Assembly: GCA_000505065.1 (NCBI GenBank)
Contig: AWSN01000001.1
Span: forward strand, 559,929-623,928
Origin: Parcubacteria bacterium RAAC4_OD1_1
Lineage (GTDB): Bacteria; Patescibacteriota; Minisyncoccia; Phycocordibacterales; UBA9973
Direction: 5' to 3'
Length of the DNA stretch: 64,000 bases
The notes beneath the pieces are model-generated. The model was not told the origin of the DNA. It was given only the letters and a program-made list of their open reading frames with translations, and ran no database searches. The number at the start of each line of letters is the position of its first letter. Within the stretch, counting starts at the first letter, position 1. Shown here piece by piece: positions 3,119 through 32,046 of the stretch. Position numbers and translations under genes: made by a program.

Positions 3119-3934
3119 ATGAAAAAGTATGTATTGTTGCTCGTCGCAGTCCTTTTAATAGGATTCCGAGCAGTGTTTGGACAACCTGTTGAACAGGAAG
3201 TTATATTCGGTTCTGTTAGAACCGATGGTTATGAACATGTAACTAAAGGGGCGTTTTGGGAAAAGCGCCCTGAGTCTAAGTTAATTTATGAAGGTAAAAC
3301 CGTTGCAGGTTTTACTGCTTATAAACTTAACTCTGATCACTTCCTACGTTTTGTTGGCGGAGAACATAACCAGAATGATAAAAATTATATAATAATTCCT
3401 AAAGGGGAATTGGTATATAAAAACAATCAAACCGGTGAGATCTTTTCCGCAAAATGTGGAAATAGAATTGAATACCTTAGGCCTGTGGACAAGGTTAGAA
3501 TTATTGAGAAACAAGTAGTTTCTGTGGTTGAAGTTGAAAAAGAAGTACCGGTAGAAAAAATTGTTGAAGTTGAAAAAGAAGTATTGGTACCAGTAGAGAA
3601 AATTGTTGTTATTCAACAGCAACCTCAGATTCAACAAATGGTTCCTGTATCGATGCCTATGATGCAGAGTTATGGAGGATCAAATTTTGGCATGAGGATT
3701 AGGATAGTTGCTGGAAGTAACAGAGGTTACTATCCCCAACAACAATGCTATCCTCAGCAAAGAACATATCAAAATAATAGGTATCAACAACGCACATATA
3801 GACAACCATTTAATCGTGGTACGATGTCTGGAGGTCGTGGAGGTTATACTCAAAATCATGGTACTATGTCTGGTGGTCGTGGTGTGATGTCCGGCGGTGG
3901 TTCTGGTGGAGCTGGTGGTGGACGTGGATACTAA
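3119..3934 (+). CDS. Secreted low-complexity protein (signal peptide, (V/E/K)-rich repeats, Q-rich, C-terminal RGG/GGRGG tail)
   Basis: ORF track 3053..3934; likely start MKKYVLLLVAVLL (signal peptide) at 3119; repeats VEVEKEVPVEKIVEVEKEVLVPVEKIV; MSGGRGG repeats. Confidence 0.55.
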   Translation: MKKYVLLLVAVLLIGFRAVFGQPVEQEVIFGSVRTDGYEHVTKGAFWEKRPESKLIYEGKTVAGFTAYKLNSDHFLRFVGGEHNQNDKNYIIIPKGELVYKNNQTGEIFSAKCGNRIEYLRPVDKVRIIEKQVVSVVEVEKEVPVEKIVEVEKEVLVPVEKIVVIQQQPQIQQMVPVSMPMMQSYGGSNFGMRIRIVAGSNRGYYPQQQCYPQQRTYQNNRYQQRTYRQPFNRGTMSGGRGGYTQNHGTMSGGRGVMSGGGSGGAGGGRGY

Positions 3935-4079
3935 TGTTCTTTTAAAAATAAAGCAGTGAAAATATTTTGGAATATAGATATTACTCACTACTTTTTTAAG
4001 CCATTAACTTTATGTTGAGGGTTTAAAATTGTAAATTAAAATTATTAAACAAAGTCGTTAATTATAAATTATTAATATT

Positions 4080-6725
4080 ATGAAAAATTATATGAAAAAA
4101 ATAATAGTCGGAATGTTTGCTTTTGTTGTTCTTTTTGCAGGGCAGAGTCTTTTTGCTTCTGGTCCTTTCAATGGTCAATCTGGTGATTGTAATCCAGCAA
4201 TAGCAATAGGAGTGTATCCAAACAATATTCCAAAAGATAGTTATGGTTGTTGGACCGCGACAAGTATAAATGCAAATCCAGGTGATATTGTAAACATTGC
4301 AATGTATTATCACAATAATACAAACCAACCACTAACAAATGTTTATGGTTCTATAATCAAATCTTCTTCTGGTCCATCAAATACATTTACTTTTACAGGT
4401 AAAATGTATTCAGATCAAGGATCGCAAACAATTGGTACTGTAACTTTAAAATTAAGTAGTTCACAAACCATTTCTTATAGTTCTACACACTGGATGAAAG
4501 ATGCAAATGCTGTTAAGAGTGATACTGATACAGATGTTTTCTATAATGATGGAGGAAAGATTTATCTAGGCACAGTACAACCTGGTTGGAATTATTTTGG
4601 AGAACTTCTTGCTGTATATAAAGTTAGTCAAAACACAACCCCAGAACCCGATATCTGTACAGATCCAGATGCTACAAATTATGGAGAAATTGGTGATTGT
4701 ATAATTCCAACACCAAAATATTGCAAGATCTCTTACTTCACAATAGACGGAAAGAGTTCATCTTCAATAAATAAAGGAGATTATTCAAAATTAGAATGGG
4801 GAACAGAAAATTGTACATCGGTTAGCCTTTCAGGAACTGGGTCAGTTTCTTCTTCTAGTTCAATAAATGTCAGACCAAATTATTCTACAAGTTACACTTT
4901 GACAGCATATAGCCCAACTACAGGAAATATTACAAAAACAGTTTATGTAAATGTTGCTTCACAACCAGACAATATTTGTACAAATCCAAGTGCAACAAAC
5001 TATGGGCAAATAGGAGATTGTGTTTTTTCAAATCCAAAATATTGTCAAATAAATAATTTTTCAGCTAGTGATACATCTATAGAAAAAGGAGATACTTCGA
5101 CATTAACTTGGACTACTTCAAATTGTAATTATGTTGTACTATCTAGTTATGGACAATTAAGTGCTAATAGTAGTAAAAGTGTAAAACCTTCCTATGATAC
5201 AGTTTATACTTTAACAGCGTATGGTAATAATGGTAATGATGAAGATACTGTAAAGATTTATGTAGATGAAGGTAGTAATGACGATAACGAATGTCGTATT
5301 ACAGACTTTTCTTCTGATGATACAACTGTAGATGATGGAGACTATGTAGAATTGGAATGGGAAACAGAAAATTGTGATTATGTAAATATCGCTGGAGTTG
5401 GAAGTTATATGAATGAAAATGATAGTGAAAGAGTAAAAATGACTTCCACAAAAACATTTACTCTTAAAGCTTATGGTAAAAACGGATCAGATTCCGATAC
5501 TCTTAAGATTTATGTAGATGAAGACAATGATAATGATAATGACAATGATAATGAATGTCGTGTTGTAGATTTTTCTGCAAGCAATACTTCAGTCAAAAAA
5601 GGTGATCCTGTTGTTATAGATTGGGATACAGAAGATTGTGATTATGTAAATATTTCTGGTATTGGAAGTTATTTGAATCCAACAGATGATTATAGGTTTT
5701 ATCCACCATATACAGGTACGTATACTATAAAAGCTTATGGATATAATGGAACAGATTCTGATTCGCTTAAGGTTTATGTAAATGAAACAATTGATCCAAA
5801 TCCAATTTATGAAGTAAATTCTAGTGTTGTCACAACTGTAGCTACAAATATTACACAAAATTCTGCTTTATTAAATGGTCTTGTGACAAATTCAAATAGT
5901 ACTACAGCAAACGTTTATTTCGAATATGGTACATCTGTAAATTTGGGATCTAGAACTGGTACTAAGACAGTAAATGGCAATAGTTCATTTTCTGATTATG
6001 TTTATGGATTAAAGGCAAACACTATTTATTACTTTAGAGCAGTTTCTGAAAATAATAATGGAATTTCAAGAGGTTCTATTCAAGTATTTAGAACAATTGG
6101 AGTTACTTCTCAAACAACAAATACTATAATAAGGACTGTTGTTGAAGGTACTACTGTCGTGGGTACTGCTTCACCTGTTATACTTGAAATAAGTAATCGT
6201 TATCAATACTTAGGTATAGGTGATTTGGTGGACTACACAGTTTACTATAAGAATATTGGTAATAGCACACTAAGAAATCCAATGCTTCAAGTTGTATTAC
6301 CAAGTGGCATTACACTTTTAAATTCTTCAGCTGGAACTTTTTCAAATGAAACAAATACACTTTCAGTTCCAATTATGGATTTGAAAAAAGGGGAAGAGGG
6401 CATACTATATTTACAAGGAAGAGTAGACTCTATTCCAGACGGACTCGCACAAATAGTTACTACTGCTATATTTGTTTATACTTCTTCAAATGGAGCACAA
6501 GAGAATGCTATGGCTTATGTGCTTAATAATCCAAAGGTTATGATAGTGGGGGGTGTATCAAATAATTTAGGAGCTGCCGCATTTCTTTCAGGAGGGTTTG
6601 TAAATATTGGTTTTATAGGATGGTTACTTATCGTTCTTATAATTCTTCTTATGGTTTTAGTCGCAAGATTATTCTTTAGAGACAGAACTGTAGTTTATAC
6701 ACCTTCAAATCATAATAGTCACTAA
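4080..6725 (+). CDS. Large cell-surface protein: signal peptide, 4 tandem ~95-aa Cys-bounded repeats, FN3-like and DUF11-like domains, C-terminal TM anchor
   Basis: 881 aa; repeats starting ICTDPDATNYGEIGDC / ICTNPSATNYGQIGDC / ECRITDFSSDD / ECRVVDFSASN each ending TLTAY/TLKAY; (DN)n linker; C-terminal helix IGFIGWLLIVLIILLMVLV. Confidence 0.7.
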   Translation: MKNYMKKIIVGMFAFVVLFAGQSLFASGPFNGQSGDCNPAIAIGVYPNNIPKDSYGCWTATSINANPGDIVNIAMYYHNNTNQPLTNVYGSIIKSSSGPSNTFTFTGKMYSDQGSQTIGTVTLKLSSSQTISYSSTHWMKDANAVKSDTDTDVFYNDGGKIYLGTVQPGWNYFGELLAVYKVSQNTTPEPDICTDPDATNYGEIGDCIIPTPKYCKISYFTIDGKSSSSINKGDYSKLEWGTENCTSVSLSGTGSVSSSSSINVRPNYSTSYTLTAYSPTTGNITKTVYVNVASQPDNICTNPSATNYGQIGDCVFSNPKYCQINNFSASDTSIEKGDTSTLTWTTSNCNYVVLSSYGQLSANSSKSVKPSYDTVYTLTAYGNNGNDEDTVKIYVDEGSNDDNECRITDFSSDDTTVDDGDYVELEWETENCDYVNIAGVGSYMNENDSERVKMTSTKTFTLKAYGKNGSDSDTLKIYVDEDNDNDNDNDNECRVVDFSASNTSVKKGDPVVIDWDTEDCDYVNISGIGSYLNPTDDYRFYPPYTGTYTIKAYGYNGTDSDSLKVYVNETIDPNPIYEVNSSVVTTVATNITQNSALLNGLVTNSNSTTANVYFEYGTSVNLGSRTGTKTVNGNSSFSDYVYGLKANTIYYFRAVSENNNGISRGSIQVFRTIGVTSQTTNTIIRTVVEGTTVVGTASPVILEISNRYQYLGIGDLVDYTVYYKNIGNSTLRNPMLQVVLPSGITLLNSSAGTFSNETNTLSVPIMDLKKGEEGILYLQGRVDSIPDGLAQIVTTAIFVYTSSNGAQENAMAYVLNNPKVMIVGGVSNNLGAAAFLSGGFVNIGFIGWLLIVLIILLMVLVARLFFRDRTVVYTPSNHNSH

Positions 6726-6742
6726 AATTAAAAAATAAAATA

Positions 6743-6782
6743 AATCCCCCCGTTTAGAGATTAGTCTCGGCGGGGGGATTTA
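6743..6782 (+). terminator. Rho-independent terminator (aaatccccccg...cggggggattt)
   Basis: 8-bp G/C stem followed by T-rich tract directly after the 881-aa ORF. Confidence 0.7.
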
Positions 6783-6798
6783 TGCTAATATAAAGATT

Positions 6799-7233
6799 AT
6801 GAAAATAGAGTTTGAATTAAAAGACATAAATATAATTACAGAAAATATATTAGAAAAAATAGAAAAACTTAGAAGCCCTAATAAAGCCACAGTACTTCTT
6901 TTTTATGGTGATTTAGGTGCAGGGAAAACTACTATTTCAAAAACTTTAGCAAAAAAGCTTGGTGTTAGAGAAAAAGTTTTATCTCCTACTTTTGTAATTA
7001 TGAAAAAATATAAAACTAAACACAAATATTTTAAGAATTTGATTCACATAGATGCATATCGATTAGAAAAAGGAGAAGAACTCATTAAGCTTGGATTTAA
7101 AGATTGGGTTTTAGAAGAAGACAATCTTATTATAATAGAATGGCCAGAAAATGTATCAAATATTTTAAATAATAAATTTTTGAAAATTTTTCTTAAGCAC
7201 AAAGATGACAAAACTAGATTAATAGAATTTTAA
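6799..7233 (+). CDS. tsaE: tRNA threonylcarbamoyladenosine biosynthesis protein TsaE (YjeE)
   Basis: 144 aa; P-loop GDLGAGKTT, SPTF and HIDAYRL motifs. Confidence 0.8.
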   Translation: MKIEFELKDINIITENILEKIEKLRSPNKATVLLFYGDLGAGKTTISKTLAKKLGVREKVLSPTFVIMKKYKTKHKYFKNLIHIDAYRLEKGEELIKLGFKDWVLEEDNLIIIEWPENVSNILNNKFLKIFLKHKDDKTRLIEF

Positions 7234-7244
7234 TAAAAATATTT

Positions 7245-7697
7245 ATGTATATATTATATGCATTGGCTGGAGCTGTGTTTGCGAGTTTGGGGACAATTTT
7301 TGCAAAGCTTGGACTTAAGGGGGTGGACTCAAATTTACTCACAGTTATAAGGGGTATTGTGATGGCTATTGTGGTTTTAGTGGTCGCTTTTTCTATGGGC
7401 AAAGTTTCAGCTTCTTCGTTGTCTTCTTTGAGTACAAGGCAATGGATTTTTGTAATTCTTTCAGGTCTTGGTGGGGCACTTTCTTGGCTCTTTTTCTATT
7501 ATGCTTTATCTGTTGGTCCCACAGTTCCTGTGACAGTTATAGACAAGCTTTCAATTGTGATTACTGCAATTTTAGCTGTAATAATTCTTTCCGAGAAATT
7601 AAATTTCCAATCAATAATTGGTCTAGTTCTTGTTTTTACAGGGACACTTTTAGTGGCTATTCCTTTTGAAAAAATTATTGCTTTCTTTAAGCACTAA
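7245..7697 (+). CDS. Small EamA/DMT-like membrane transporter (half-size)
   Basis: 150 aa, 4-5 predicted TM helices, EamA-like hydrophobic pattern. Confidence 0.45.
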   Translation: MYILYALAGAVFASLGTIFAKLGLKGVDSNLLTVIRGIVMAIVVLVVAFSMGKVSASSLSSLSTRQWIFVILSGLGGALSWLFFYYALSVGPTVPVTVIDKLSIVITAILAVIILSEKLNFQSIIGLVLVFTGTLLVAIPFEKIIAFFKH

Positions 7698-7699
7698 TC

Positions 7700-7730
7700 A
7701 AAACTGTCCAGGCAAGGCCTGGACAGTTTT
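7700..7730 (+). terminator. Rho-independent terminator (aaaactgtccagg caa ggcctggacagtttt)
   Basis: Perfect 10-bp stem plus T tract. Confidence 0.7.
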
Positions 7731-7774
7731 GATTTGAAAGTATAAATAAACTTTTGTTGTGATATAATTATAGG

Positions 7775-10150
7775 GTGAAAAAAGAAACTCACAATAAAAA
7801 TAAATGTGTAGTTTTGCTTGATGCTCATGCCATAATTCACCGGGCTTATCATGCACTGCCTTCATTTGTAAATAGTAATGGTGAGCCTACTGGGGCTATC
7901 TATGGTCTTTCTACAATGCTTTTTAAGATTATAACTGAACTTAAGCCGGATTATATTATAGCTTGTTATGATCTTCCTAAAAAAACTTTTCGTCATATTG
8001 CTTACGCAGATTATAAAGCAGGCAGAGCAAAAGCTGATGAAAATTTAGTTTCTCAGCTTATTAGTTCGCGTGAATTATTTTCTGCTTTTTCTATCCCTAT
8101 TTATGAAAAAGAAGGATTTGAGGCAGACGACATCCTGGGTACAATTGGAGAAAGACTAAAGTCCACATCCGGGGTAGATACGATAATTGCATCAGGAGAT
8201 ATGGATACTCTTCAGCTTGTAAATAATGATAAAGTGAGAGTTTATACTTTGAAGAAAGGTATAAATGATACGATTATTTATAATGAAAAATCTGTGATGG
8301 AAAGATTTGGTTTTGCTCCAAAATATTTACCAGATTATAAAGGGCTTCGAGGTGATCCATCTGACAATATCATTGGGGTTAAGGGTATAGGAGAAAAAAC
8401 AGCAATGACTTTGATTTCCAAATACCACACTATTGAAAATTTATACAAAGAAATAAAATCAAACCCTGTTGGTTTGGGTGTAAGTGAAAGGATTTTAAAT
8501 ATATTAAAAGAAGGTGAAGATGAAGCTGTTTTTTCGAAAACTTTGGCGACAATAAGGCGAGATGCTCCTATAGAATTTTCTTTACCAGAAAATTTTTGGA
8601 AAGATTCTGTTTCTAAAGAAAAAGTTCTTGATTTTTTTAGAAAGATGGAATTTAGAAGTTTACCTAATAGATTTTTGTCCATTCTAAATGGAGGTGATAT
8701 AGAAATAAAAAATAAAATAAATACAAATATAAAAACAGAAGACAGTTTCCTTTTAGAAAAAGCCCGGATTGCTTATTGGTTGCTTGATTCTGAAAGAACA
8801 AACGCTAAAGAAGATGAAGTTATTTCTTATAAAGGAAGTACTTCTTTGGAAGAAGCAATAGAAAAATTGGAAGAAGATATAAAAAAAGAAGATTTAAGTT
8901 ATGTTTATAATGAAATAGAAATACCAGTTATAAATATAATAAAAAAAATGGAAGAAAATGGTATTTTGATAGATAAAAATTATATTAAAAAATTAGGAGA
9001 AGAATACCATAAAGATTTAAATATTTTAGAAAAAGAAATTTGGCAAATGTCCGGTATGGAATTCAATATTAATTCCCCAAAACAATTAGGAGAAGTTCTT
9101 TTTGATAAAATTGGTCTTAGTGCGAAAGGGCTTAAGAAAAGTAAGGGTGGTGCCAGATCTACAAGAGAAAGTGAACTTGAAAAATTGAAAGACATACATC
9201 CTATTATTGGTGAAATATTGAAATATCGAGAATTTCAGAAATTACTTTCAACTTATATAGACAATATTCCTAAACTAATAGGTAAGGATGGTCGTCTTCA
9301 TGCAAATTTTATTCAGACTGGAACGACCACAGGAAGATTTTCTTCGACAGAGCCAAATTTACAAAATATTCCTATTAAAACAGAAAAAGGTAAAAATATT
9401 AGAAATGCTTTTATTGCAGAGAAGGGATATAAATTAGTTTCTTTTGATTATTCTCAGGTGGAACTTCGTGTCGCTGCTTTGATGTCTCAGGATTCTTACT
9501 TTATTAAATCTTTTAAAGAAGGTAAAGATATTCATAGTGCTGTCGCAATGAAGGTTTTCAATGTGGATGAGAACGGTCTTACTCCTGAAATGAGAAGACG
9601 TGCTAAGGTTATTAATTTTGGTATTTTATATGGGATGGGGGTGAATGCTTTACGTGAGAATTTAGGTGGGGAAAGGAGTGAGGCTCAAACTTTTTATGAT
9701 AATTATTTTAAAGAATTTCCTACCATTGCTTCTTATTTAGAAAGTATTAAAGAATTTGCAAAGAAAAATGGTTATACAAAAACTTTATTTGGAAGAAAAA
9801 GGTATTTTAGAGGTATTAAATCCCAACTTCCTTTTATAAGAGCAATGAATGAAAGAATGGCCATCAATGCTCCTATACAAGGGACTGCTACAGCTGATAT
9901 TATAAAAATTGGTATGAAAAAAGCTGATGAAGCTATAAAAGGAAAAGGTCTATCTTCTTATGTTAGAGTGTTGCTTCAAATTCATGATGAGCTTATTTTT
10001 GAAGTAAAAGAAGAAAAAGTCTTGGAATTTATAGATATAATAAAAAATGAAATGGAAAATGTGATCCCAAAAGAATTTTTAAAAGATTTAGAATCTGTAC
10101 CCCTTGTAGTATCTGCTTCTTATGGAGCTAATTGGGGTGAGCTCAAATAG
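7775..10150 (+). CDS. polA: DNA polymerase I (5'-3' exonuclease + polymerase domains; compact, 3'-5' exo domain reduced)
   Basis: 791 aa; N-terminal VLLDAHAIIHRAYHALP (FEN-like), motif A DYSQVELRVAA, motif B RRRAKVINFGILYGMG, motif C QIHDELIFEV. Confidence 0.9.
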   Translation: MKKETHNKNKCVVLLDAHAIIHRAYHALPSFVNSNGEPTGAIYGLSTMLFKIITELKPDYIIACYDLPKKTFRHIAYADYKAGRAKADENLVSQLISSRELFSAFSIPIYEKEGFEADDILGTIGERLKSTSGVDTIIASGDMDTLQLVNNDKVRVYTLKKGINDTIIYNEKSVMERFGFAPKYLPDYKGLRGDPSDNIIGVKGIGEKTAMTLISKYHTIENLYKEIKSNPVGLGVSERILNILKEGEDEAVFSKTLATIRRDAPIEFSLPENFWKDSVSKEKVLDFFRKMEFRSLPNRFLSILNGGDIEIKNKINTNIKTEDSFLLEKARIAYWLLDSERTNAKEDEVISYKGSTSLEEAIEKLEEDIKKEDLSYVYNEIEIPVINIIKKMEENGILIDKNYIKKLGEEYHKDLNILEKEIWQMSGMEFNINSPKQLGEVLFDKIGLSAKGLKKSKGGARSTRESELEKLKDIHPIIGEILKYREFQKLLSTYIDNIPKLIGKDGRLHANFIQTGTTTGRFSSTEPNLQNIPIKTEKGKNIRNAFIAEKGYKLVSFDYSQVELRVAALMSQDSYFIKSFKEGKDIHSAVAMKVFNVDENGLTPEMRRRAKVINFGILYGMGVNALRENLGGERSEAQTFYDNYFKEFPTIASYLESIKEFAKKNGYTKTLFGRKRYFRGIKSQLPFIRAMNERMAINAPIQGTATADIIKIGMKKADEAIKGKGLSSYVRVLLQIHDELIFEVKEEKVLEFIDIIKNEMENVIPKEFLKDLESVPLVVSASYGANWGELK

Positions 10151-10186
10151 TAGCATAAAATTATTGAGAGTGATAAAATTATAATT

Positions 10187-10678
10187 ATGGAAGAAAATAT
10201 CAATAAAGAAAATAATTCACCAAAAGGTATAGTTCATGTGATTTTGTCATATGAATATTCTTTGTTTTTAATTGCTATAATTTTAGGTATTCTCTGTGAT
10301 CATATTTTTCATACAAAAATTATAGATAGTATCGATCTTTCTTATATGGGAATATTTATGATATTTATTGGATCTAGTTTGGTGTATTGGGCTCAAAGAT
10401 CAACAAGTGTATCTAAATCTAAAACCGAAGAAGAAAGGAAAACAGATTTCTTTTACAAGGGTCCATATAAATACAATCGTAACCCCACACATTTTGGACT
10501 TTTTGTAATGTCTTTAGGATTAGGATTTATTTTAAATTCAGTTTTTTCTATTATTTTTATTTTTATAATACATTTAATAGCCAAGCGCACTTTTCTTAAA
10601 AAACAAGATAAAATTTTAGAAGAGAGATATGGGGAGAGTTTTTCTTCTTATAAAAATAAAGTTAAAGATTGGATATGA
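10187..10678 (+). CDS. Isoprenylcysteine carboxyl methyltransferase (ICMT)/phospholipid methyltransferase-like membrane protein
   Basis: 163 aa; multi-TM; C-terminal YKYNRNPTHFG motif resembling ICMT family RHPxY. Confidence 0.45.
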   Translation: MEENINKENNSPKGIVHVILSYEYSLFLIAIILGILCDHIFHTKIIDSIDLSYMGIFMIFIGSSLVYWAQRSTSVSKSKTEEERKTDFFYKGPYKYNRNPTHFGLFVMSLGLGFILNSVFSIIFIFIIHLIAKRTFLKKQDKILEERYGESFSSYKNKVKDWI

Positions 10679-11304
10679 TATATGTCTTGGTTGGAGGTGA
10701 AATAAAAGAAAGAAATATTTTTCTTAACAAAAATATTAAAAAAGGCCTCACTCCTATATTTTTGGATGTTTTAAATAAAGAGGTTATTTTAAATGAAGCA
10801 CTTAGTGTATCTTTTTTTGAGAATGATAATTTTTTTATAATTGATAATATTATTAGTGAAGGCAAAATTCTCTTTGACGATGAAGATCTTAAAATTATAA
10901 ATGATTCTGAGAAACTTTTTGTATTTAAAGAAGATAAAATTACAGCAGTAAATGAAAAGAAATTTAAAAAGTTTTCTAAAATAGAGTTTTTTGAAAACAA
11001 GGTGATAAAATTAAAAAAGGACAATACTTTTTTAATAGCAGAATATTTTGGATTTAATAATAAACTTAAAACATGGATAATATACAGAAGTTTGATTGAT
11101 GGGGGGATAGAGCCAGAAGCTATTTCAGGGATACTTTTTTGGAAGATAAAGGCTATGTTGCTTTATGGAACTAAATTTTTTACAAAAGATATTTTAAAAA
11201 AGATGTCATCTTCTCTGGTTTCTATTTATCATGAAGCTCATAGGGGGGAGTCTGATATGACTATTTCTCTTGAGAAATTTATTCTTTCCTCACTTAATAA
11301 ATAA
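10669..11304 (+). CDS. Hypothetical protein (weak resemblance to DNA pol III delta HolA N-terminus)
   Basis: 211 aa; MIYVLVGGEI start; no strong motif. Confidence 0.3.
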   Translation: MDMIYVLVGGEIKERNIFLNKNIKKGLTPIFLDVLNKEVILNEALSVSFFENDNFFIIDNIISEGKILFDDEDLKIINDSEKLFVFKEDKITAVNEKKFKKFSKIEFFENKVIKLKKDNTFLIAEYFGFNNKLKTWIIYRSLIDGGIEPEAISGILFWKIKAMLLYGTKFFTKDILKKMSSSLVSIYHEAHRGESDMTISLEKFILSSLNK

Positions 11305-11322
11305 ATGATATAATAAGATTAT

Positions 11323-11580
11323 ATGGAACCAATATTAAAATCAGAAATATTTTTCTTTATTAGCTCTGTCGCTGTAATTTTATTTACAGTTGTTTTTCTT
11401 ATTTTTGGATTTTATCTTATTAAGATAATGAGAAATTTTTCTCATATATCAGACAAGTTAAAAAAAGGGGTCGATAATGCATCTGCTTCACTTGAAGAAG
11501 TGGGGGAGAGTATAAAAGAAAGCAAATTATTTTCTTTTATATTTGGAGATCAAAAGAAAAAGAAAAAAAGTCGTAATTAA
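11323..11580 (+). CDS. Small membrane protein
   Basis: 85 aa, one N-terminal TM helix. Confidence 0.4.
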   Translation: MEPILKSEIFFFISSVAVILFTVVFLIFGFYLIKIMRNFSHISDKLKKGVDNASASLEEVGESIKESKLFSFIFGDQKKKKKSRN

Positions 11581-11600
11581 AAATTAATTTAAAAAATAAA

Positions 11601-11957
11601 ATGGTAAATAGTAAAACAAATAAAAAGAGTATGAGTGTAGGTAAGGCTATAGGAGTAGGAGCATCTGTTGCAGCACTTTCTGCTGCTGCGTATCTACTTT
11701 TTGGACCAGAGGGTAAAAAGAATAGAAAGATAATAAAAGGTTGGTCTGTAAAAATGAAAGGTGAAATAATTGAAAAGCTTGAAAAAGCTAAAGATGTCAC
11801 CGAGCCGATTTATCATAAGGTTGTAGATGAGATATCATCAAAATACAAAAAGATGAAAAATATTGATCCAAAAGAATTAGAAGAAGTAATTGGTGAAATA
11901 AAGAAGCATTGGAAGGGTATGATAAAAGGATCAAAGCCAAAAGCAAAAAAGAAATAA
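11601..11957 (+). CDS. YtxH-like (DUF948-like) small protein
   Basis: 118 aa; N-terminal hydrophobic segment then GPEGKKNRK, Lys-rich. Confidence 0.4.
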   Translation: MVNSKTNKKSMSVGKAIGVGASVAALSAAAYLLFGPEGKKNRKIIKGWSVKMKGEIIEKLEKAKDVTEPIYHKVVDEISSKYKKMKNIDPKELEEVIGEIKKHWKGMIKGSKPKAKKK

Positions 11958-12232
11958 TACAAATTTAAAAGCGCCTTCGGGTGCTTTTAAAATATTTAGA
12001 CAAAAAGAAAAGGCTTAGGAGTCAGCCCTCAAAAATTTGAGAAATGGCTCCTAAGCCTTTTAGACTTTTAATAAAGAACAATTGTGTTTTTAATAATGAT
12101 AAACACAATATAATGAACTATTTTATAAAAAAACTTCCCCTAAATAATAACCCTATATACTGGGTGAGATTTGGGATATTTATAATTTCAAACTTGTTTA
12201 TATTATAACTCCTTATTTTAAATAAGTAAATT

Positions 12233-12463
12233 GGGGGTGTGGATAAACCCCCACACCTACTTTTAGGTTGTTCTGCTTTTTTACAAGACAAAGATAATTA
12301 TATTTTATATATTTATTGAGTATATTAGATATTATTAATGTTTCTTTATTGGCAGAACTAAAAAGTTACCTAAAAGTGGGTGTGGGGGTAAACCGCATTA
12401 TATAATCAAAATAATGTTGTTTATTTTTCAAATTAATAAAAATATGGGTGTGGGGTAAACCCA
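12233..12463. repeat. Three copies of GGGTGTGGGG-containing motif (aaaaTATGGGTGTGGGGtaaacc) in a 620-bp AT-rich non-coding region upstream of tRNA-Lys
   Basis: 12233-12257 gggggtgtggataaacccccacacc (also contains TGTGGATAA); 12372-12394; 12439-12463. Confidence 0.6.
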
Positions 12464-12583
12464 TTGATTTTATCTATTAAATATGGTATTTTTTAAGGGT
12501 TATAGTTTTATCCGCTTATAGCTGTTTTGGTAGATATAAAGCTTAAATAACGGTTAGAGTTTAGTTTGTTGATAATTTTATAT

Positions 12584-12656
12584 CCGCTCGTAGCTCAGTC
12601 GGTAGAGCAGCTCCCTTTTAAGGAGATGGTCGTAGGTTCGATTCCTACCGAGCGGA
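12584..12656 (+). tRNA. tRNA-Lys (anticodon TTT)
   Basis: 7-bp acceptor ccgctcg/cgagcgg, D-arm gctcagtcggtagagc, anticodon loop cTTTTaa, T-arm ggttcgattcc, discriminator A; no encoded CCA. Confidence 0.85.
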
Positions 12657-12733
12657 CAATGATTATATTTTAAGGCTTATTTTTAAAAAAGCTCTATTTT
12701 TGACGACCACTTCCCTTTAAAAACAGGTCGTCA

Positions 12734-13651
12734 GTGTTTTATTTTTGGTTCAAAAAAATGGATATAGCAATTCTAGTTCACAAGTTCTGTGACTATTCAT
12801 CTTTCATTAAAGGATACTCATCTGCAACGATTAAGAGATATAAAAATACTGTTCTGAGTTACTGTAAGATAATGAAAGTATTTGAAATAAGCCAAGTAAA
12901 CGAAAATAATGTTCGTGAGTTATTTTATATAGGCAGAACAGAGCGAAAATGGTCAGCGAATACCTTTATAGTATACCATAAGACCCTTTTAGTATTCTTC
13001 CGTTGGTGTGTTAAACAAGGATATTTAACTAAGAATCCAATAGAAGATATAGAAAAACCAAAACTTGAAAATAAATTACCATTTAAACTAAATAAACAGA
13101 CGGCACTTAGATTATTGGAGATTGTATATAACTACCCATATGATAGTAAGTTCTTGAGATACAGAAATCATGCTATTTTTTCAACATTTATCTTTACTGG
13201 ATTAAGGAAGAAAGAGTTATTGAATCTTAAATTTACAGATGTAGATCTAGAAAACTTTACTATATTTGTAAAACAAGGGAAAGGAAATAAGGACCGTATT
13301 GTTCCTATGAGTTATACTTTGGCCCAAACATTAAAAAGATATGTGGAGGAAAGAAAAAGATTCAATAAAACATGTCCTGAATTCTTTGCTTCATCAAGAG
13401 AAAATATGGGATTTACTGATAATGGACTAAAAAAATTAGTAGAACAGATGAGAGAGAAATCAAAGATAAAATTTACTGTTCATAAATTAAGACATACCTT
13501 TGCAACTCTTATGCTTGAGGGTGGATGTGATATCTACTCTCTATCTCGTATGATGGGACACTCTGATATAAAAACAACAACAATTTACTTATCTGCTAGT
13601 GCAGAACATTTAAGAGGACAGATCACAAAACATCCATTAAATGATATATAA
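12734..13651 (+). CDS. Tyrosine recombinase/integrase (XerC/D-like)
   Basis: 305 aa; C-terminal HKLRHTFATLMLEGGCDIYSLSRMMGHSDIKTTTIYL (R-H-R-Y catalytic signature); may start at internal MDIAIL (12767). Confidence 0.85.
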   Translation: MFYFWFKKMDIAILVHKFCDYSSFIKGYSSATIKRYKNTVLSYCKIMKVFEISQVNENNVRELFYIGRTERKWSANTFIVYHKTLLVFFRWCVKQGYLTKNPIEDIEKPKLENKLPFKLNKQTALRLLEIVYNYPYDSKFLRYRNHAIFSTFIFTGLRKKELLNLKFTDVDLENFTIFVKQGKGNKDRIVPMSYTLAQTLKRYVEERKRFNKTCPEFFASSRENMGFTDNGLKKLVEQMREKSKIKFTVHKLRHTFATLMLEGGCDIYSLSRMMGHSDIKTTTIYLSASAEHLRGQITKHPLNDI

Positions 13652-13774
13652 AAGGCTTATTTATTAGAAATATAAATTCATAGCTGACATTTTATTGATT
13701 ATGTTTTATAAATATATATAGTGCTGTTTTTTAATATGGTACATGATATAATCAAGAGTATCAAAATAAAAATT

Positions 13775-14836
13775 ATGAGAAAATTAAAAGTAGTAGATCT
13801 ATTTTCTGGTTGTGGTGGGTTAAGTTTGGGTTTTGAGATGGCTGGTTTTGATATTATTGGTGGAATTGATTTCGATAAAGATTCAATAATAACTTTCCAA
13901 AAAAACTTTAAAAATTCAATTACATTTACAGAAGATATTAGAAAAATTCCAGATTCAATAATCAAAAAAACATATAAAGATGTTGATGTTTTAGTTGGTG
14001 GTCCTCCTTGTCAGGGTTTTAGTTCTGCTAATATGCACCAAAAGGATATAAAGGACGATAAAAGAAATCTATTATTTTTAGAATTTTTAAGATTTGTTAA
14101 AATTCTAAGACCAAAAGTAATTCTAATAGAAAATGTTAGCGGAATTTTAACTAAAAATGATAGTTTTGCTAAAAATGGTATTGAGAGCCAACTAACTGAT
14201 TTAGGGTATGAAGTATCTCAAAAAGTTCTTTTTGCTTCAAATTATGGTGTTCCGCAAAAAAGAAAAAGGAATTTTTTTATTGGAATAAAAAAAAGCTATA
14301 AAAAAAGTTTTGATTTTAATCTTTTACCTCAAAATAAAAAAAAGGTTACAGTAGAAGAAGCCATCAGTGATTTATATGCATTAGAGAAAGGAATTAATAA
14401 TAAATTACCTGTTCTTTCTGATTATCAAAAATTGATGAGAAAAAATAGTAATAACAAAATTCTAAATCACGAAATAAGATATCCGAATGATGAAGTTATC
14501 AAAAGAATTAGATACGTGAAAGAGGGTGGAAACTGGCAAGATGTTCCAGAAAATTTATGGAAAACAAAAAGAAACAACCGTCATTCATCCGCTTACAGAA
14601 GATTAAATAGTAAAGATGTTTCTATAACCATAGATACAGGGCATATGAATTATTTCCATCCGAAATTTGATAGGACCCCCACTGTTAGAGAATCTGCGAG
14701 AATACAAAGTTTTCCTGATAATTTTGAATTTACTGGAAAAACAGGTTCTCAATTAAAACAAGTAGGTAATGCGGTGCCACCTATTTTAGCAAAAGAAATT
14801 GCTTTAATTATAAAAAAATATTTGGAAGAAAAATAA
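13775..14836 (+). CDS. DNA (cytosine-5)-methyltransferase, first of two
   Basis: Motif I DLFSGCGGLSLGF, motif IV GGPPCQGFS, motif VI ENV, motif X QVGNAVPP; ORF track start 13721, likely start MRKLKVV at 13775. Confidence 0.9.
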   Translation: MRKLKVVDLFSGCGGLSLGFEMAGFDIIGGIDFDKDSIITFQKNFKNSITFTEDIRKIPDSIIKKTYKDVDVLVGGPPCQGFSSANMHQKDIKDDKRNLLFLEFLRFVKILRPKVILIENVSGILTKNDSFAKNGIESQLTDLGYEVSQKVLFASNYGVPQKRKRNFFIGIKKSYKKSFDFNLLPQNKKKVTVEEAISDLYALEKGINNKLPVLSDYQKLMRKNSNNKILNHEIRYPNDEVIKRIRYVKEGGNWQDVPENLWKTKRNNRHSSAYRRLNSKDVSITIDTGHMNYFHPKFDRTPTVRESARIQSFPDNFEFTGKTGSQLKQVGNAVPPILAKEIALIIKKYLEEK

Positions 14837-14837
14837 T

Positions 14838-15878
14838 ATGAAAAATAAGATAATTGATTTATTTTCAGGTGTTGGAGGTTTAAGTTTGGGGTTTGAAAAT
14901 GCTGGATTTGATATAGCATTAGCTATTGATCATTGGGATGATTCAATAAAAACCTTCAATCACAACAGAAAAGATAAAGTTGGAACAACCAAAGATGTAT
15001 ACGATTTTACAGACCAAGAATTGAAAACTTTAAAAAAAGAAGTTATTGGCATTGTTGGTGGTCCTCCTTGTCAGGGTTTTAGTATGGTAGGAACCAGAGA
15101 CCACAAAGATAAGAGAAATAGTCTTTATTTAGAATTTGTAAGATTTGTTCAAATAATAGAACCAAAATTTTTTGTTTTGGAAAATGTTAAAGGTTTATTA
15201 ACTTTAAAAGGTGGATCTTTCAAGCAAGATATTATCAAAAGATTTTCAGATATAGGCTATAATGTAACATTCAAGATCTTAAGGGCTTCTGATTACGGAG
15301 TTCCCCAAAATAGAGATAGAGTTTTTTTTGTTGGCCTAAAAAAGAGTTATTTTAAAGATAAATTTTTTGAATTTCCTGATGTAAACAAGAAAATAGTAAC
15401 AACGGAAGAAGCTTTATCAGACCTTCTTGATGTTGAAGAAAAATCAGAAACTCAAAAATATAAAAAACCACCAAAAAGTGACTATCAAAAATTTATTAGA
15501 GAAAATTCATCTTTAATTTTTAATCATGAAATAACAAATCATTCGGATCAAACAGTTGATATTATAAGTAAAATACCAGATGGTGGTAATATAAAATCAA
15601 TTTCACAAGATTATTACAAGATTAGAAATTATAATACTGCTTTTAAAAGAATGAATAGTAAAAAACCATCAAATACTATTGATTGTGGACATAGAAATTA
15701 TTTTCACTACTGCAAAAATCGTATCCCTACTGTTAGAGAATCTGCGAGAATACAAAGTTTTCCTGATGTCTTTGAGTTTTTAGGTTCTAAAACAAGTCAA
15801 TACAAACAGGTTGGTAATGCCGTTCCACCACTTCTAGCTTATGCGGTTGCTAAAAAAATAAAGAAAATGCTATTATAA
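14838..15878 (+). CDS. DNA (cytosine-5)-methyltransferase, second of two
   Basis: 346 aa; DLFSGVGGLSLGF, GGPPCQGFS, ENV, QVGNAVPP; start overlaps stop of upstream methyltransferase (operon). Confidence 0.9.
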   Translation: MKNKIIDLFSGVGGLSLGFENAGFDIALAIDHWDDSIKTFNHNRKDKVGTTKDVYDFTDQELKTLKKEVIGIVGGPPCQGFSMVGTRDHKDKRNSLYLEFVRFVQIIEPKFFVLENVKGLLTLKGGSFKQDIIKRFSDIGYNVTFKILRASDYGVPQNRDRVFFVGLKKSYFKDKFFEFPDVNKKIVTTEEALSDLLDVEEKSETQKYKKPPKSDYQKFIRENSSLIFNHEITNHSDQTVDIISKIPDGGNIKSISQDYYKIRNYNTAFKRMNSKKPSNTIDCGHRNYFHYCKNRIPTVRESARIQSFPDVFEFLGSKTSQYKQVGNAVPPLLAYAVAKKIKKMLL

Positions 15879-15884
15879 TAGTAC

Positions 15885-17015
15885 ATGTTGCTATATAATT
15901 CTGTAGAAAATAAAACCTTATTATACGATACAGTTTTCAGAAAAAAGGCATCTTTTGAAGAAGATACTGAGCTTACAATTATAACTGGATATATTGGTTT
16001 TTCTACACCAGAAGGACTTTCAAAATTGGGATTTAAAAATACAAAAGTCATTATTGGTATGTATGGTTCTAGTGTTAGCCCTGACATGCATTCTATATTA
16101 TTGAGAATTCAGAAACAAAATACCAATATAAAATTTTTTTATACAAGCAGTAAAATACACTCAAAAATATACATATGGCACAAAGGAAACAGTATAAAAG
16201 AATATGCTATTGGTAGTGCTAATTTTTCTTCCGCTACTGCATTGGTTGAAAATTTATACAGAGAAACACTGGATTTATTCCCTACAGAAATAGAATCGGA
16301 AGAAAAAATTAATCAATATATTAAGGACATCAATAGTTTTTTGGTTCCTATTGATAATTATACAGCTACATTAGGAGCAACACAAAGAGAAAGACATTTA
16401 TTAGTTGAGGAAAGGGGTAGAATTTTATCTCTATTGTCTTCTAAATCAACACCGACAAAACCTAATATAATTGGAGCAACCACAATAGCAGGAGGTGTTT
16501 CTGTTTCAAGTGGATTAAATTGGGGATATTCAAATGGATTACCATTATTAGGAGATGCATATATTGCTATTAGTGCTGAATTTATAAAAAATAATCCTGA
16601 TATTATCCTTCCTAAACAAAAAGAAGAAAATGTCCCAATTGAAGTGCTTTGGGATGATGGCACAACAATGTTAATGTTAATGGAAGGTAATATGGGTACA
16701 GATATTTTATATCCAAAACAAATATCATCTTATAATAACAAATCATTATTAGGATCTTATTTAAGAAAAAGAATTGGTGAAAAAATAAACAAAAATTTAG
16801 AATTTACAGAAGAAGAAATAAGTGAGATCAAAAAACATAAATATCTATTAAGAAAAGAAGAAGCAACTAATATAGATGTACAAATTTTTAATTCAATTAA
16901 AACAAAACTAATTACAAAAGATATGTTAGATGAATATGGAAGAACGACTATAGACATAAAAAAGCTAGATGACGGTTCTTTTTATTTTGATTTCGGAGCA
17001 AGAAATAATGACTAG
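15885..17015 (+). CDS. Putative restriction endonuclease, phospholipase-D (Nuc/BfiI-like) family
   Basis: 376 aa immediately after the two methyltransferases; N-terminal HSKIYIW...GSANFS resembles the PLD HxK...GSxN motif. Confidence 0.55.
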   Translation: MLLYNSVENKTLLYDTVFRKKASFEEDTELTIITGYIGFSTPEGLSKLGFKNTKVIIGMYGSSVSPDMHSILLRIQKQNTNIKFFYTSSKIHSKIYIWHKGNSIKEYAIGSANFSSATALVENLYRETLDLFPTEIESEEKINQYIKDINSFLVPIDNYTATLGATQRERHLLVEERGRILSLLSSKSTPTKPNIIGATTIAGGVSVSSGLNWGYSNGLPLLGDAYIAISAEFIKNNPDIILPKQKEENVPIEVLWDDGTTMLMLMEGNMGTDILYPKQISSYNNKSLLGSYLRKRIGEKINKNLEFTEEEISEIKKHKYLLRKEEATNIDVQIFNSIKTKLITKDMLDEYGRTTIDIKKLDDGSFYFDFGARNND

Positions 17016-17074
17016 TTTTTAAATGATTTGTCATCTATCACACCATAATGATATAATAAATTTACAATCAAATA

Positions 17075-17225
17075 GTTAGTTATCAAGAGTATGGCGAGAG
17101 TATTGGCTCAATGACCCATCAGCAACCTGCAGAAACAAGGTGCTAAATCCAACCAAATAGTGGAAACACTATATGGAAAGATAAGACTAGTCATCTATCT
17201 TTCCTCTTATTAGAGGAATTTTTTA
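17075..17225 (+). promoter_or_regulatory. SAM-I riboswitch with intrinsic terminator expression platform, upstream of metK
   Basis: TTATCAAGAG...GGCGAGAG..TGGCTCAATGACCC..AGCAACC...GGTGCTAAATCC...AAGATAAGA matches the SAM-I core; then hairpin cctcttattagagg plus T6. Confidence 0.8.
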
Positions 17226-17238
17226 ATTCAAAAATAAT

Positions 17239-18204
17239 ATGAAGAAAACAGCAGAGTGTGTAAGTCCAATGCATCCAGATAAAATTTGCGATTTCATTGC
17301 AGATAATATTTTAGATGCATATCTAGAAGAAGATAAAAATAGTCGTTGTGCCATTGAAGTCATGGGAGGCCATAACCTTATTACAATAAATGGAGAAGTA
17401 ACATCAGGAGCTACCCCAGATATAGAAAAAGTAGTAAAAAGTTTAGTGGGTAATAATTTCAAGGTTATTTGTAATATAGTTAAACAGAGTCCAGAAATAG
17501 CTCGAGGTGTAGTTTCGGGTGGAGCTGGTGACCAAGGGATAATGAAAGGTTATGCTACAAGTGAAACCTCTTCCCTTATGCCATTAGAGTATGAACTTGC
17601 TAGAAGTTTATGTAATTATATCTATGATAAATATCCTTATGATGGAAAAACTCAAATTACTACAGAAAATGGATGTATTAATACGATTATTGCCAGTTTT
17701 CAAAATGCCCCCAAAAAAGAATTGGAAAAACTTGTTATGGAATGGTTTAAAAAACATGGAACAAAATCAAATAAAATATTTCAATATGAGGTATTTATAA
17801 ACCCAGCTGGAGATTGGTCTTTAGGTGGTTTTGATGCAGACACAGGACTTTCTGGTAGAAAGCTTATTGTTGATAACTATGGACCAGAAATACCTATTGG
17901 TGGTGGGTCATTCTCTGGTAAAGATTATACAAAAGTTGATCGTTCAGGTGCTTATATGGCTCGTAAAATAGCAGTTGATCTTCTTAAAAAACATAAAGCA
18001 AAAGAGGTCCATACTAAACTAGCATATGCTATTGGTAAAGCAGAACCAGTAATGGCAGTAGCTAGTATTGATGGACTTGAAATAGAAATTAAGGGTTATG
18101 ATTTAACACCCAAAGGAATATATGAATACTTAAATTTACAAGAAGTAAAATTCTCTAAAACTTCTAACTGGGGACATTTTGGAAGAGATTTCACTTGGAA
18201 TTAA
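17239..18204 (+). CDS. metK: S-adenosylmethionine synthetase, compact form (321 aa)
   Basis: SPMHPDKICDFIAD (GHPDK motif), GGAGDQGIMKGYA, IGGGSFSGKDYTKVDRSGAYMARKIA. Confidence 0.85.
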   Translation: MKKTAECVSPMHPDKICDFIADNILDAYLEEDKNSRCAIEVMGGHNLITINGEVTSGATPDIEKVVKSLVGNNFKVICNIVKQSPEIARGVVSGGAGDQGIMKGYATSETSSLMPLEYELARSLCNYIYDKYPYDGKTQITTENGCINTIIASFQNAPKKELEKLVMEWFKKHGTKSNKIFQYEVFINPAGDWSLGGFDADTGLSGRKLIVDNYGPEIPIGGGSFSGKDYTKVDRSGAYMARKIAVDLLKKHKAKEVHTKLAYAIGKAEPVMAVASIDGLEIEIKGYDLTPKGIYEYLNLQEVKFSKTSNWGHFGRDFTWN

Positions 18205-18228
18205 GAATTGGTGATATAATCATAAAAT

Positions 18229-18735
18229 ATGAGTTATATAAAATATTACAACTTGGAACAATATATATTCCAAGATGTTGGACCAAATTTTAGAAAGACA
18301 GGTAAAATTACCATAGAGGATTTTTTCTGTATAGTAATTTGGAAGGCAAATAGAGCTAAAACCAACATAAGAAAAAAATTATCTAAAAATACGACACTAA
18401 GTAAATCTATAATAAGTATTTCAGATGATATATATAATGCCCATTCAAAAGAAGAAAAACTAGAGATAATGATAAAGAAATGGAAGTTTGGATTTCCAAT
18501 GGCTACAGCTATTTTAACTGTATTATATCCAGAAGATTTCACTGTATATGACTATCGAGTACGAGGACAATTAAAAATAGAAAATATTTATAGCGTAGAT
18601 AAATATTTTAGTAAGTTTTTACCAAAAGTTAAAAAATATGCAGATTCTTTGGGTGAAAATTTAAGGAATACAGATAAGGAATTGTGGGGAAAATCTTTCT
18701 ATGAAGATCTTCAAAAACTAATAAAAAATGATTAA
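18229..18735 (+). CDS. Hypothetical protein; paralog of 41051..41659; possible HhH-GPD-like DNA glycosylase fold
   Basis: 168 aa; LEIMIKKWKFGFPMATAILTVLYPEDFTVYDYRV aligns with LEILKKCFNNSLVGSSKILHFINPDKFAIWDSRV of the other gene and loosely with Nth LPGVGRKTANVVL...IAVDTHIFRV. Confidence 0.35.
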   Translation: MSYIKYYNLEQYIFQDVGPNFRKTGKITIEDFFCIVIWKANRAKTNIRKKLSKNTTLSKSIISISDDIYNAHSKEEKLEIMIKKWKFGFPMATAILTVLYPEDFTVYDYRVRGQLKIENIYSVDKYFSKFLPKVKKYADSLGENLRNTDKELWGKSFYEDLQKLIKND

Positions 18736-19444
18736 TGCTAACCTACTAAACGATAGAATAAAAAACTTTTTTGGATACGGTAGTCTAGATTCTACTGTCT
18801 GGTTTGTTGGTATGGAAGAAGGATTAAACCCAGGTATTGATGTAAAAGAATTAGAACTTCGTTTTCTTTCAGCATTTGGGAATGTAACTATTGATATGAG
18901 AAAAGATATGTCTAGGTTAGAAGGACATATGAAATGGTTTAAAAAAGATTCTCCAATACAAGCAACTTGGAAATATCCTATTGCTCTATATCTGTATCTT
19001 AAAAATAATAGAATCCCTACAAAAGAAGAAATTAGAGAACATCAAGGATTAGTACTTGGTGATAAAGAAAAGAAAGAAAGCACAACAATAGAATTAATGC
19101 CATTACCTTCAAATAAAGCTAACCAATCTACTTGGTTATATAAGAAATATAATGTTCCTGGTTTAAATTCAAGAAAAGAATATCTTGAAATGTATAAACC
19201 AGAAAGGGTTCAGAAATTAAAGAAACTAATAGAGAAGCACCGACCTAAACTAGTTATATTTTACTCTCTTACTTATTTACCAGAATGGACCGAGATTATA
19301 GGTGTTAATCCAAAAGAAATAACGAAACAAATGTATTTTATTAAGAAAAGTAATACTAGCTTTTGCATATTACCTCAAGGAGCTTCCCACGGTATGTCTT
19401 ATACAAGAGTTTATGAATATGGAGATAAAATAAAAACTCTCTAA
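18728..19444 (+). CDS. Hypothetical protein
   Basis: 238 aa ORF, no recognised motif. Confidence 0.4.
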   Translation: MINANLLNDRIKNFFGYGSLDSTVWFVGMEEGLNPGIDVKELELRFLSAFGNVTIDMRKDMSRLEGHMKWFKKDSPIQATWKYPIALYLYLKNNRIPTKEEIREHQGLVLGDKEKKESTTIELMPLPSNKANQSTWLYKKYNVPGLNSRKEYLEMYKPERVQKLKKLIEKHRPKLVIFYSLTYLPEWTEIIGVNPKEITKQMYFIKKSNTSFCILPQGASHGMSYTRVYEYGDKIKTL

Positions 19445-32045: not shown

Positions 32046-32046
32046 A

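Follow-up and report, generated by a model that had tools for sequence, protein, structure and literature searches.

Why does a gene for S-adenosylmethionine (SAM) synthetase, metK, with a SAM-I riboswitch in front of it, lie directly behind a restriction-modification (RM) system inside an integrated genomic island? We addressed this question in a 64-kb stretch (hereafter the window) of the ~0.7-Mb genome of Parcubacteria bacterium RAAC4_OD1_1 (contig AWSN01000001.1). The source lineage is Candidatus Nomurabacteria, of the candidate phyla radiation (CPR, or Patescibacteria), and the locus is also found with identical sequence in GCA_003543255.1. MetK, the nuclease and PolA of the window each have a database protein from Nomurabacteria with 100% identity. 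An earlier reading of the letters (the original prediction) had proposed a mobile island in which two C5 cytosine methyltransferases and a nuclease (M1, M2 and R) form a BfiI-like RM system supplied with SAM by its own metK, and had considered that this might be the host's only copy. All the elements that it named are present at or near the places it assigned to them, and we describe two features that it did not mention, an integrase at 26318-27247 and a SAM riboswitch at 37818-37930.

Our overall account is that an island was inserted at a tRNA-Lys gene, that it carries an ordinary metK module, that an older metK site lies elsewhere in the window, and that recombination brought RM genes and metK together. 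We give this account a probability of roughly 65%. The nuclease, the C5 methyltransferases, the S-box leader and the compact MetK of CPR bacteria are each ordinary, and the RM system is a further member of a known family. What is unusual is the arrangement, namely a seemingly essential, self-regulated metK within an integrative defence island.

The island at tRNA-Lys

The island is 14.8 kb long (12660-27480) and sits in the 3' half of tRNA-Lys. Apart from the RM and metK genes, it is delimited and filled by the following features, in which ORF stands for open reading frame.

12584-12657, + strand: tRNA-Lys(ttt), the integration target (ARAGORN; Rfam tRNA, 71.6 bits)
12615-12663: attL direct repeat, 49 nt with one mismatch, 46 nt exact
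12734-13651, + strand: tyrosine integrase 1, Xer-like, adjoining the tRNA (PF00589, E 2e-32, full-length domain)
19479-25580: remaining cargo, with a DUF1508 ORF, PDC-S42, a LOOT RNA, a Zn-ribbon protein and an S49 peptidase
26318-27247, + strand: tyrosine integrase 2, adjoining attR (PF00589, E 1.3e-30)
27432-27522: attR, made of the displaced 3' half of tRNA-Lys (27432-27480) and a native-type trailer hairpin (27466-27522)

The nearest relative that we recovered, L112 (GCA_964618365.1; loci from other genomes are given L numbers throughout), has a PolA 89% identical to that of the window. Positions 1-12659 are collinear with L112 at 80-85% nucleotide identity, ending at an identical tRNA-Lys, and the homology picks up again at 28555-28630 and 29672-32051 (histidine kinase, SpoU). 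Between these collinear blocks, L112 contains no integrase, RM genes, riboswitch or metK. The site being empty in L112, the tRNA-Lys island is a true insertion. The features expected of a tRNA-integrated island (repeats of the tRNA 3' end, an integrase beside the tRNA, and a close relative that lacks the element) were all found, and none of 100 shuffles gave a match like the pair 12615-12663/27432-27480. The predicted tRNA-integrated element is therefore upheld, with repeats of 49 nt and one mismatch. A first attempt to locate an empty site, in which the methyltransferase of the right flank (27781-28557) was compared with metagenome contigs, had given a best match of 58% with no shared neighbours and no tRNA-Lys; the route through PolA later succeeded.

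The two repeats can be told apart. attR shares 45 nt at 100% identity with the L112 tRNA-Lys, and a perfect 23-bp hairpin downstream takes in the tRNA 3' end; the tRNA-Lys of L112 has a trailer hairpin (14650-14705) of similar architecture to that at window 27466-27522. It follows from this resemblance that attR is the original 3' half, displaced by the insertion, and attL, the tRNA-Lys 3' half from 12615 onwards, the copy brought by the island. A related trailer architecture also follows the tRNA-Arg of the window (blastn match of L112 14637-14743 to window 42855-42968).

Two observations weigh against the simplest view of this insertion. The DNA just to the right of the L112 tRNA-Lys also differs from the window, the position being variable in both genomes, and the island has two integrases yet only two att copies, so that it may be one element or two by origin. 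The integrases share 31% identity (blastp), and the NCBIfam Xer-type matches of integrase 1 fall below cutoff. We found no third att copy and no sub-element repeats inside the island, which would split it.

Among the cargo, the S49 peptidase (23512-24297) resembles a family of phage head-maturation proteases (E 1.8e-39), and several PHROG families of unknown function are present. A 294-residue protein (19907-20791) is similar to PDC-S42, which PADLOC lists as a candidate for phage defence (E 6e-16), and to phrog_3243 (E 2e-21). The LOOT RNA of the window (22307-22430) lies within the island, 49 nt upstream of the Zn-ribbon/S49-peptidase gene pair. LOOT RNAs (RF03000, 61-90 bits) occur 1.5-5 kb from metK in four examined loci, namely the window, L005 (12444-12569), L006 (5974-6097) and L065 (15451-15572), the last one ahead of a set of OB-fold/SMC-like genes. 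These positions hint that LOOT is tied to mobile or defence regions; the main text of its source paper holds no description of it.

The riboswitch-metK unit and its orphan counterpart

The metK unit follows the nuclease gene in the same orientation.

17028-17057, + strand: promoter-like site (TTGTCA, 18-nt spacer, TG-TATAAT), 11/12 consensus positions, a consensus match only
17077-17187, + strand: SAM-I (S-box) riboswitch aptamer (RF00162, 54.5 bits against a gathering cutoff of 44.4, E 8e-10; 128.8 bits with our own covariance model)
17201-17224, + strand: riboswitch terminator, UUCCUC-UUAU-UAGAGGAA and then U6
17239-18204, + strand: compact metK, encoding a methionine adenosyltransferase (MAT) of 321 residues with three MAT Pfam domains
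18229-19444, + strand: two ORFs of 168 and 238 residues, function unknown, close-packed 3' of metK

The riboswitch and the 321-residue MetK thus agree with what had been predicted. The promoter-like site is the best match within 12.5-20 kb and has an extended -10, and the -10 region is also conserved in the metK leaders of other genomes. An antiterminator pairing between GGAAAGAUA (17175-17183) and UAUCUUUCC (17198-17206) competes with the terminator; as in SAM-I expression platforms, the 3' strand of helix P1 is set against the terminator, and the platform is conserved in other genomes. With SAM bound, P1 would sequester GGAAAGAUA and the terminator would form. When SAM is low, or the aptamer unfolded, GGAAAGAUA would instead pair with UAUCUUUCC, and transcription would enter metK and possibly the two downstream ORFs. 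The island metK leader thus has the predicted behaviour of a standard S-box OFF switch.

MetK carries PF00438, PF02772 and PF02773, all above their cutoffs, and matches solved MATs in the PDB with E 1e-51, HPDK, GAGDQG, DGKTQ, D-x-GLSGRK and GGGSFSGKD..KVDRS being aligned. Of the motifs first reported as intact, GAGDQG and GGGSFSGKD are so, whereas GHPDK reads MHPDK. The compact protein is 50-60 residues short, and the missing ones belong to loops, among them the one preceding GAGDQG. On the other hand, MetK scores below the cutoff of the NCBIfam equivalog TIGR01034 (249.5 against 309.4 bits), so that its activity is only inferred, from the conserved motifs. This shortfall comes from the loop deletions, including the region before GAGDQG, and a sub-cutoff score may explain why NCBI names some such proteins "methionine adenosyltransferase domain-containing".

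Neither the compact protein nor its leader is particular to the island. Homologues of 310-326 residues and at least 66% identity number in the thousands and come from Nomurabacteria and Paceibacterota, and short MetK proteins also occur in GTDB representatives of Paceibacteria, Doudnabacteria, Falkowbacteria, Roizmanbacteria and Saccharibacteria. A SAM riboswitch lies directly upstream of metK in all seven of the nearest GTDB loci (7/7, Rfam) and in 50 of 61 CPR loci searched with a covariance model of our own. The riboswitch with compact metK is an ordinary housekeeping unit of Patescibacteria, not an island invention or an accessory variant. Our literature search found no paper on compact CPR MetK.

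With its own promoter, SAM-I riboswitch, terminator/antiterminator and metK, the unit would be transcribed separately from the RM genes. No terminator was found on the + strand between the nuclease gene and the riboswitch, and RM transcripts may therefore read into the leader; beyond this possible read-through, we found no evidence of regulatory coupling of the RM genes to metK. The proposal of a self-sufficient RM system that brings its own SAM supply does not fit a unit that is standard for the lineage, has its own promoter and terminator, and shows no sign of coupling.

For the 168- and 238-residue ORFs, Pfam, PADLOC and NCBIfam gave no match, and PHROG none that was significant. In L070, whose MetK is 89% identical, both ORFs and a DUF1508 ORF likewise lie 3' of metK. 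In the window, the DUF1508 ORF is at ~19479-19650 on the - strand. These three ORFs may be transcribed with metK under riboswitch control.

The second SAM riboswitch of the window lies outside the island and heads a different set of genes, a second RM operon that we call RM2.

37818-37960, + strand: second SAM-I riboswitch with the same terminator platform (aptamer 37818-37930; RF00162, 57.9 bits against 44.4)
37983-38066, + strand: hydrophobic ORF of 27 codons
38112-38140: promoter-like site before RM2
38143-39204, + strand: RM2 C5 methyltransferase
39209-39850, + strand: RM2 N4/N6 methyltransferase
39862-41028, + strand: RM2 HNH Type II nuclease (PADLOC REase_II, E 7e-65)

Every other riboswitch match in the examined loci precedes metK. 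After the ATG of this orphan leader there is no metK; the 27-codon ORF, a hairpin without U-tract and the promoter-like site follow, and then the RM2 operon. Between the orphan riboswitch and the RM2 C5 methyltransferase no + strand terminator was found, and a search for remnants of metK, both there and in the remainder of the window, found none. The orphan leader resembles that of the island over the stretch that runs from the -10 box to an equally placed ATG (84% by BLAST, 81% over the aligned leader) and differs from it by compensatory stem changes. Its identity to the leader of a true metK, that of L065, is 87%, above its 81% to the island copy. A recent duplication of the two riboswitches within the genome was rejected on the 81-84% identity, on the compensatory changes, and on each leader being at least as similar to leaders of other genomes.

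We propose that a complete metK-type leader has survived here, ~20 kb from the island metK, and that its coding sequence was replaced from the start codon by the 27-codon ORF and RM2. The resident metK coding sequence would have been overwritten, with the island copy now supplying SAM; this direction of events is our inference. In several relatives, metK adjoins homologues of genes found at 28-43 kb of the window: SpoU-Fpg-RuvA in L015, Fic in L004 and L048, TspO in L017, L039, L055 and L056, rhodanese in L004, L010 and L014, and tRNA-Arg(gcg) with tRNA-Ser(tga) in L008 and L011. As evidence for an ancestral metK at the orphan riboswitch, this synteny is patchy, which weighs against the proposal: the genes are arranged differently, and the rhodanese homologues match only over short lengths, at 32-45% identity. 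The G+C content is 22-23% over window 40001-42000, which holds the HNH nuclease gene and unannotated ORFs at 41051-41659 and 41857-42222; such a low G+C behind the orphan riboswitch would fit DNA that was acquired recently.

Since the older metK site keeps its leader but no metK coding sequence, the island metK is probably the host's only SAM synthetase gene. The capture of a sole metK, as first suggested, is accordingly the reading that fits best within the window. Against it, our search covered 64 kb of the genome, which leaves room for a second metK, and L004 demonstrates that two copies can coexist. It could be argued that a core metK persists elsewhere, that the island gene is an extra paralogue gained by recombination, and that the orphan riboswitch is unrelated debris, in which case the island would illustrate the ordinary capture of a housekeeping gene. 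The two intact riboswitch-metK units of L004, 8 kb apart and with proteins 83% identical, would suit this argument, as would the poor conservation of metK neighbourhoods in the phylum and our 64-kb view of the genome. Nevertheless, among the best 120 MetK matches, all at 66% identity or more, only the island protein came from the window's own genome contig, and the orphan leader testifies to the loss of a metK coding sequence from the lineage. CPR genomes, moreover, are small and rarely keep duplicates. We consider a redundant copy unlikely. If the island metK is indeed the sole copy, the host depends on the island, and an essential gene has been taken over, regulator included, by an integrative element. 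Loss of the island would then be lethal, which would stabilise it on top of the post-segregational killing exerted by the RM system.

Restriction-modification and defence genes beside metK

To place this neighbourhood in context, we defined a close clade of 14 loci with a MetK at least 72% identical to that of the window. RM or defence genes stand just upstream of riboswitch-metK in 9/14 of these loci and differ in type.

Window: M1-M2-PLD nuclease (PLD, phospholipase D)
L064: Type IIG enzyme, AIPR, PD-(D/E)XK nuclease, DUF2726
L065: Shedu SduA and Type III RM
L002: Type III Mod and Res
L088: Res, two methyltransferases, PD-(D/E)XK nuclease, T5orf172; integrase downstream of metK
L004: Dam-type and N4/N6 methyltransferases
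L005: Type IIG-like match
L115: N4/N6 methyltransferase
L116: DpnI-like nuclease

Where a DNA methyltransferase is among these upstream genes, it is encoded on the metK strand at every locus but L115. A tblastn survey with methyltransferase exemplars found 12 DNA methyltransferase genes upstream of metK against two downstream within 5 kb (p 0.013), and a match within 7.5 kb upstream in 7/12 close-clade loci against 3/49 others (Fisher p 2e-4); these statistics are crude, the exemplars having been taken from upstream regions and the loci being phylogenetically non-independent. A Pfam survey of the two nearest upstream ORFs at 59 metK loci was too diffuse to be used as a count, and the tblastn survey was used in its place.

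Several loci preserve traces of how such neighbourhoods may arise. In L004 (Paceibacterota), two riboswitch-metK units (2016-3120 and 9835-10933) flank an RM cassette composed of a D12 methyltransferase, a 419-residue ORF, DUF6996/6997 and an N4/N6 methyltransferase. Leaders and coding sequences are mosaic, the leaders of L064 and L004_B being 92% identical and their MetK proteins only 77%, and extra DNA separates the terminator from metK in L001/L114, L014 and L031. An ORF of 61 codons lies between terminator and metK in L001 (3260-3514) and L114 (7015-7200). The boundary of leader and coding sequence is suggested to be an insertion hotspot. The double unit, the mosaic leaders and the extra junction DNA point to frequent recombination at the riboswitch-metK unit, which in this clade would be a hotspot, or a travelling companion, for defence cassettes. 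We therefore favour recombination and insertion dynamics as the best explanation for the adjacency of RM genes and metK.

A functional explanation would be that mobile elements carry metK since a local SAM supply helps their methyltransferases, the adjacency being selected and not a by-product of recombination; it could act by securing self-methylation after transfer or by countering phage enzymes that degrade SAM. The recurrence of differing RM or defence cassettes upstream of riboswitch-metK, nearly always on the same strand, speaks in its favour, and the lack of a + strand terminator before the riboswitch means that RM transcripts can reach the leader. Phage contigs from IMG/VR also carry compact MetK homologues (46-61% identical) beside terminase, portal and DNA methyltransferase genes. 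Four of these contigs with terminase and portal genes, L090, L094, L095 and L096, have a compact MetK 53-60% identical to ours, and in the genuine phage contigs L094 and L096 metK lies directly beside DNA methyltransferase genes. Phage-borne metK is already reported in virome papers, and with these contigs it shows that metK on a mobile element is not new as such. In addition, the SAMase of phage T3 is reported to defeat SAM-dependent defence (bioRxiv 10.1101/2023.02.27.530186).

On the other hand, the phage-contig metK copies that we examined have no SAM riboswitch, and the island metK is of the ordinary lineage type, with ordinary SAM feedback and its own promoter. The M1-M2-R cassette is found elsewhere without metK, the association of RM genes with metK is weak across the wider phylum (the 3/49 loci above), and a sole metK would serve the whole cell, not the island alone. 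Selected coupling is, in our judgement, distinctly unlikely, and we retain recombination and insertion as the origin of the adjacency. CPR bacteria rely heavily on RM for defence, and the clade pattern together with the phage methyltransferase-metK pairs suggests a link between SAM supply and DNA methylation in the CPR mobile gene pool.

A bolder generalisation, which we raise as a speculation with very little chance of holding in full, is that mobile defence islands of this CPR clade travel with or target riboswitch-metK and can overwrite the resident copy, so that the host relies on the island for its SAM. In the same way, a SAM riboswitch would have come to stand before the RM operon at 37818-41028, whose expression would rise as SAM falls, making it the first riboswitch-controlled RM system. 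Were this so, RM2 expression would go up, for instance, under a SAM-degrading enzyme of a phage. Our literature search found nothing linking a SAM riboswitch to RM or to a DNA methyltransferase. The stretch 37818-41028 may be the first RM operon behind a SAM riboswitch, or simply an orphan leader; in either case, an orphan riboswitch before an RM operon offers a natural test case for RM expression tied to the SAM pool.

The M1-M2-R cassette and comparison with known systems

The RM system beside the island metK consists of three contiguous genes.

13775-14836, + strand: M1, C5 cytosine DNA methyltransferase, 353 residues from ATG (PF00145, E 1e-74; TIGR00675, 234.8 bits against a cutoff of 100.65)
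14838-15878, + strand: M2, second C5 cytosine DNA methyltransferase (PF00145, E 5e-80; TIGR00675, 234.3 bits)
15885-17015, + strand: R, restriction nuclease of 376 residues with an N-terminal PLD domain (RE_NgoFVII, RE_NgoFVII_C)

The longest ORF of M1 begins at a GTG at 13721. M1 and M2 are 51% identical (blastp) and are the expected tandem pair, although the stop of M1 and the start of M2 do not overlap, as had been stated, but are 1 nt apart. HSK...GSANFS, in turn, is not the only recognisable motif of R: besides the PLD domain RE_NgoFVII (PF09565, E 2e-18), R contains a B3-like DNA-binding domain, RE_NgoFVII_C (PF20731, E 2.4e-23), and NCBI names it an NgoFVII-family restriction endonuclease. 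The PLD motif HxK(x)4D(x)6GSxN occurs once per chain, with His at the position of the middle Asp. H92-S-K94, G110-S-A-N113 and E127 are invariant across 34 homologues, and we take these residues to be the counterparts of the active-site residues described for BfiI and R.NgoAVII (PMC4267654).

A PDB sequence search with R alone returned nothing relevant. A profile of the 34 homologues reached R.NgoAVII (4rct, E 4e-8), and the same profile gave no match to BfiI. The AlphaFold2 model of R has a mean pLDDT (predicted local distance difference test) of 87, and its top Foldseek match is again 4rct (E 5e-13). The PLD and B3 folds of R are confirmed, so that the phospholipase-D-type nuclease of the original prediction stands. 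By sequence, R belongs to the NgoFVII/R.NgoAVII family and not to that of BfiI.

The known relatives of R differ in gene content. The BfiI system comprises M1, M2 and a stand-alone R dimer, and CglI/NgoAVII one M, R and an obligatory helicase-like ATPase (PMC4267653, PMC4267654). We found no helicase or ATPase ORF in the island (12.6-27.5 kb). M1, M2 and R thus make up the gene set of a BfiI-type system, two independent methyltransferases and a stand-alone nuclease with no ATPase. Because there are two methyltransferases and the island has no ATPase gene, the organisation is BfiI-like even though the sequence family is that of NgoAVII; the BfiI analogy originally drawn holds for the former and fails for the latter. 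M1 and M2 would each protect one strand of an asymmetric site, and R, given that no ATPase partner gene is present, may act as a BfiI-like homodimer.

The cassette recurs without a nearby metK in L085/L086, after an integrase fragment, and in L087, beside rnpA-yidC; it is an independent mobile module. In L087 no ATPase gene adjoins R, though the contig runs only ~640 bp past R, and in L085/L086 a PLDc_2-helicase gene lies ~2 kb downstream of R.

A stand-alone mode of action for R has one clear difficulty. It is deduced from gene content only, and R.NgoAVII, the closest solved relative and the nearest to R in both sequence and structure, is unable to cut DNA without its ATPase (PMC4267653). R might accordingly work like R.NgoAVII/R.CglI with a helicase-like ATPase encoded elsewhere, or be inactive, M1 and M2 then being effectively orphan methyltransferases. 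We doubt both versions: the gene set is that of BfiI, CglI/NgoAVII having one methyltransferase and an adjacent ATPase gene (PMC4267653), the three genes are conserved as a unit in L085-L087, and the catalytic H, K, N and E positions of R are invariant in the 34 homologues.

Compared with known systems, the cassette shares with BfiI of Bacillus firmus, a Type IIS system with a PLD nuclease, two separate methyltransferases and one nuclease with no ATPase, yet R has no detectable sequence similarity to BfiI, even by profile. With CglI/NgoAVII it shares a nuclease of the Pfam families PF09565 and PF20731 and C5 partner methyltransferases, but here there are two methyltransferases, and no such ATPase gene is found beside R or anywhere in the island.

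The metK leader resembles the S-box metK leaders of Firmicutes in having an RF00162 aptamer directly upstream of metK and a terminator/antiterminator platform giving SAM feedback repression. Here, however, it occurs in CPR bacteria and before a MetK ~60 residues shorter, and one of the two copies in the window no longer precedes metK but a small ORF and an RM operon. Homologues of the compact MetK are also encoded by phages, metK there being an auxiliary metabolic gene; unlike the phage copies, which have no riboswitch, the island copy keeps a host-type leader and is closest to chromosomal copies. Lastly, like other tRNA-integrated genomic or defence islands, the island has duplicated a tRNA 3' half, has an integrase beside the tRNA, carries defence genes and is missing from a close relative; it differs from them in a second integrase at its far end and in a cargo that includes the seemingly sole copy of the essential metK together with its regulator.

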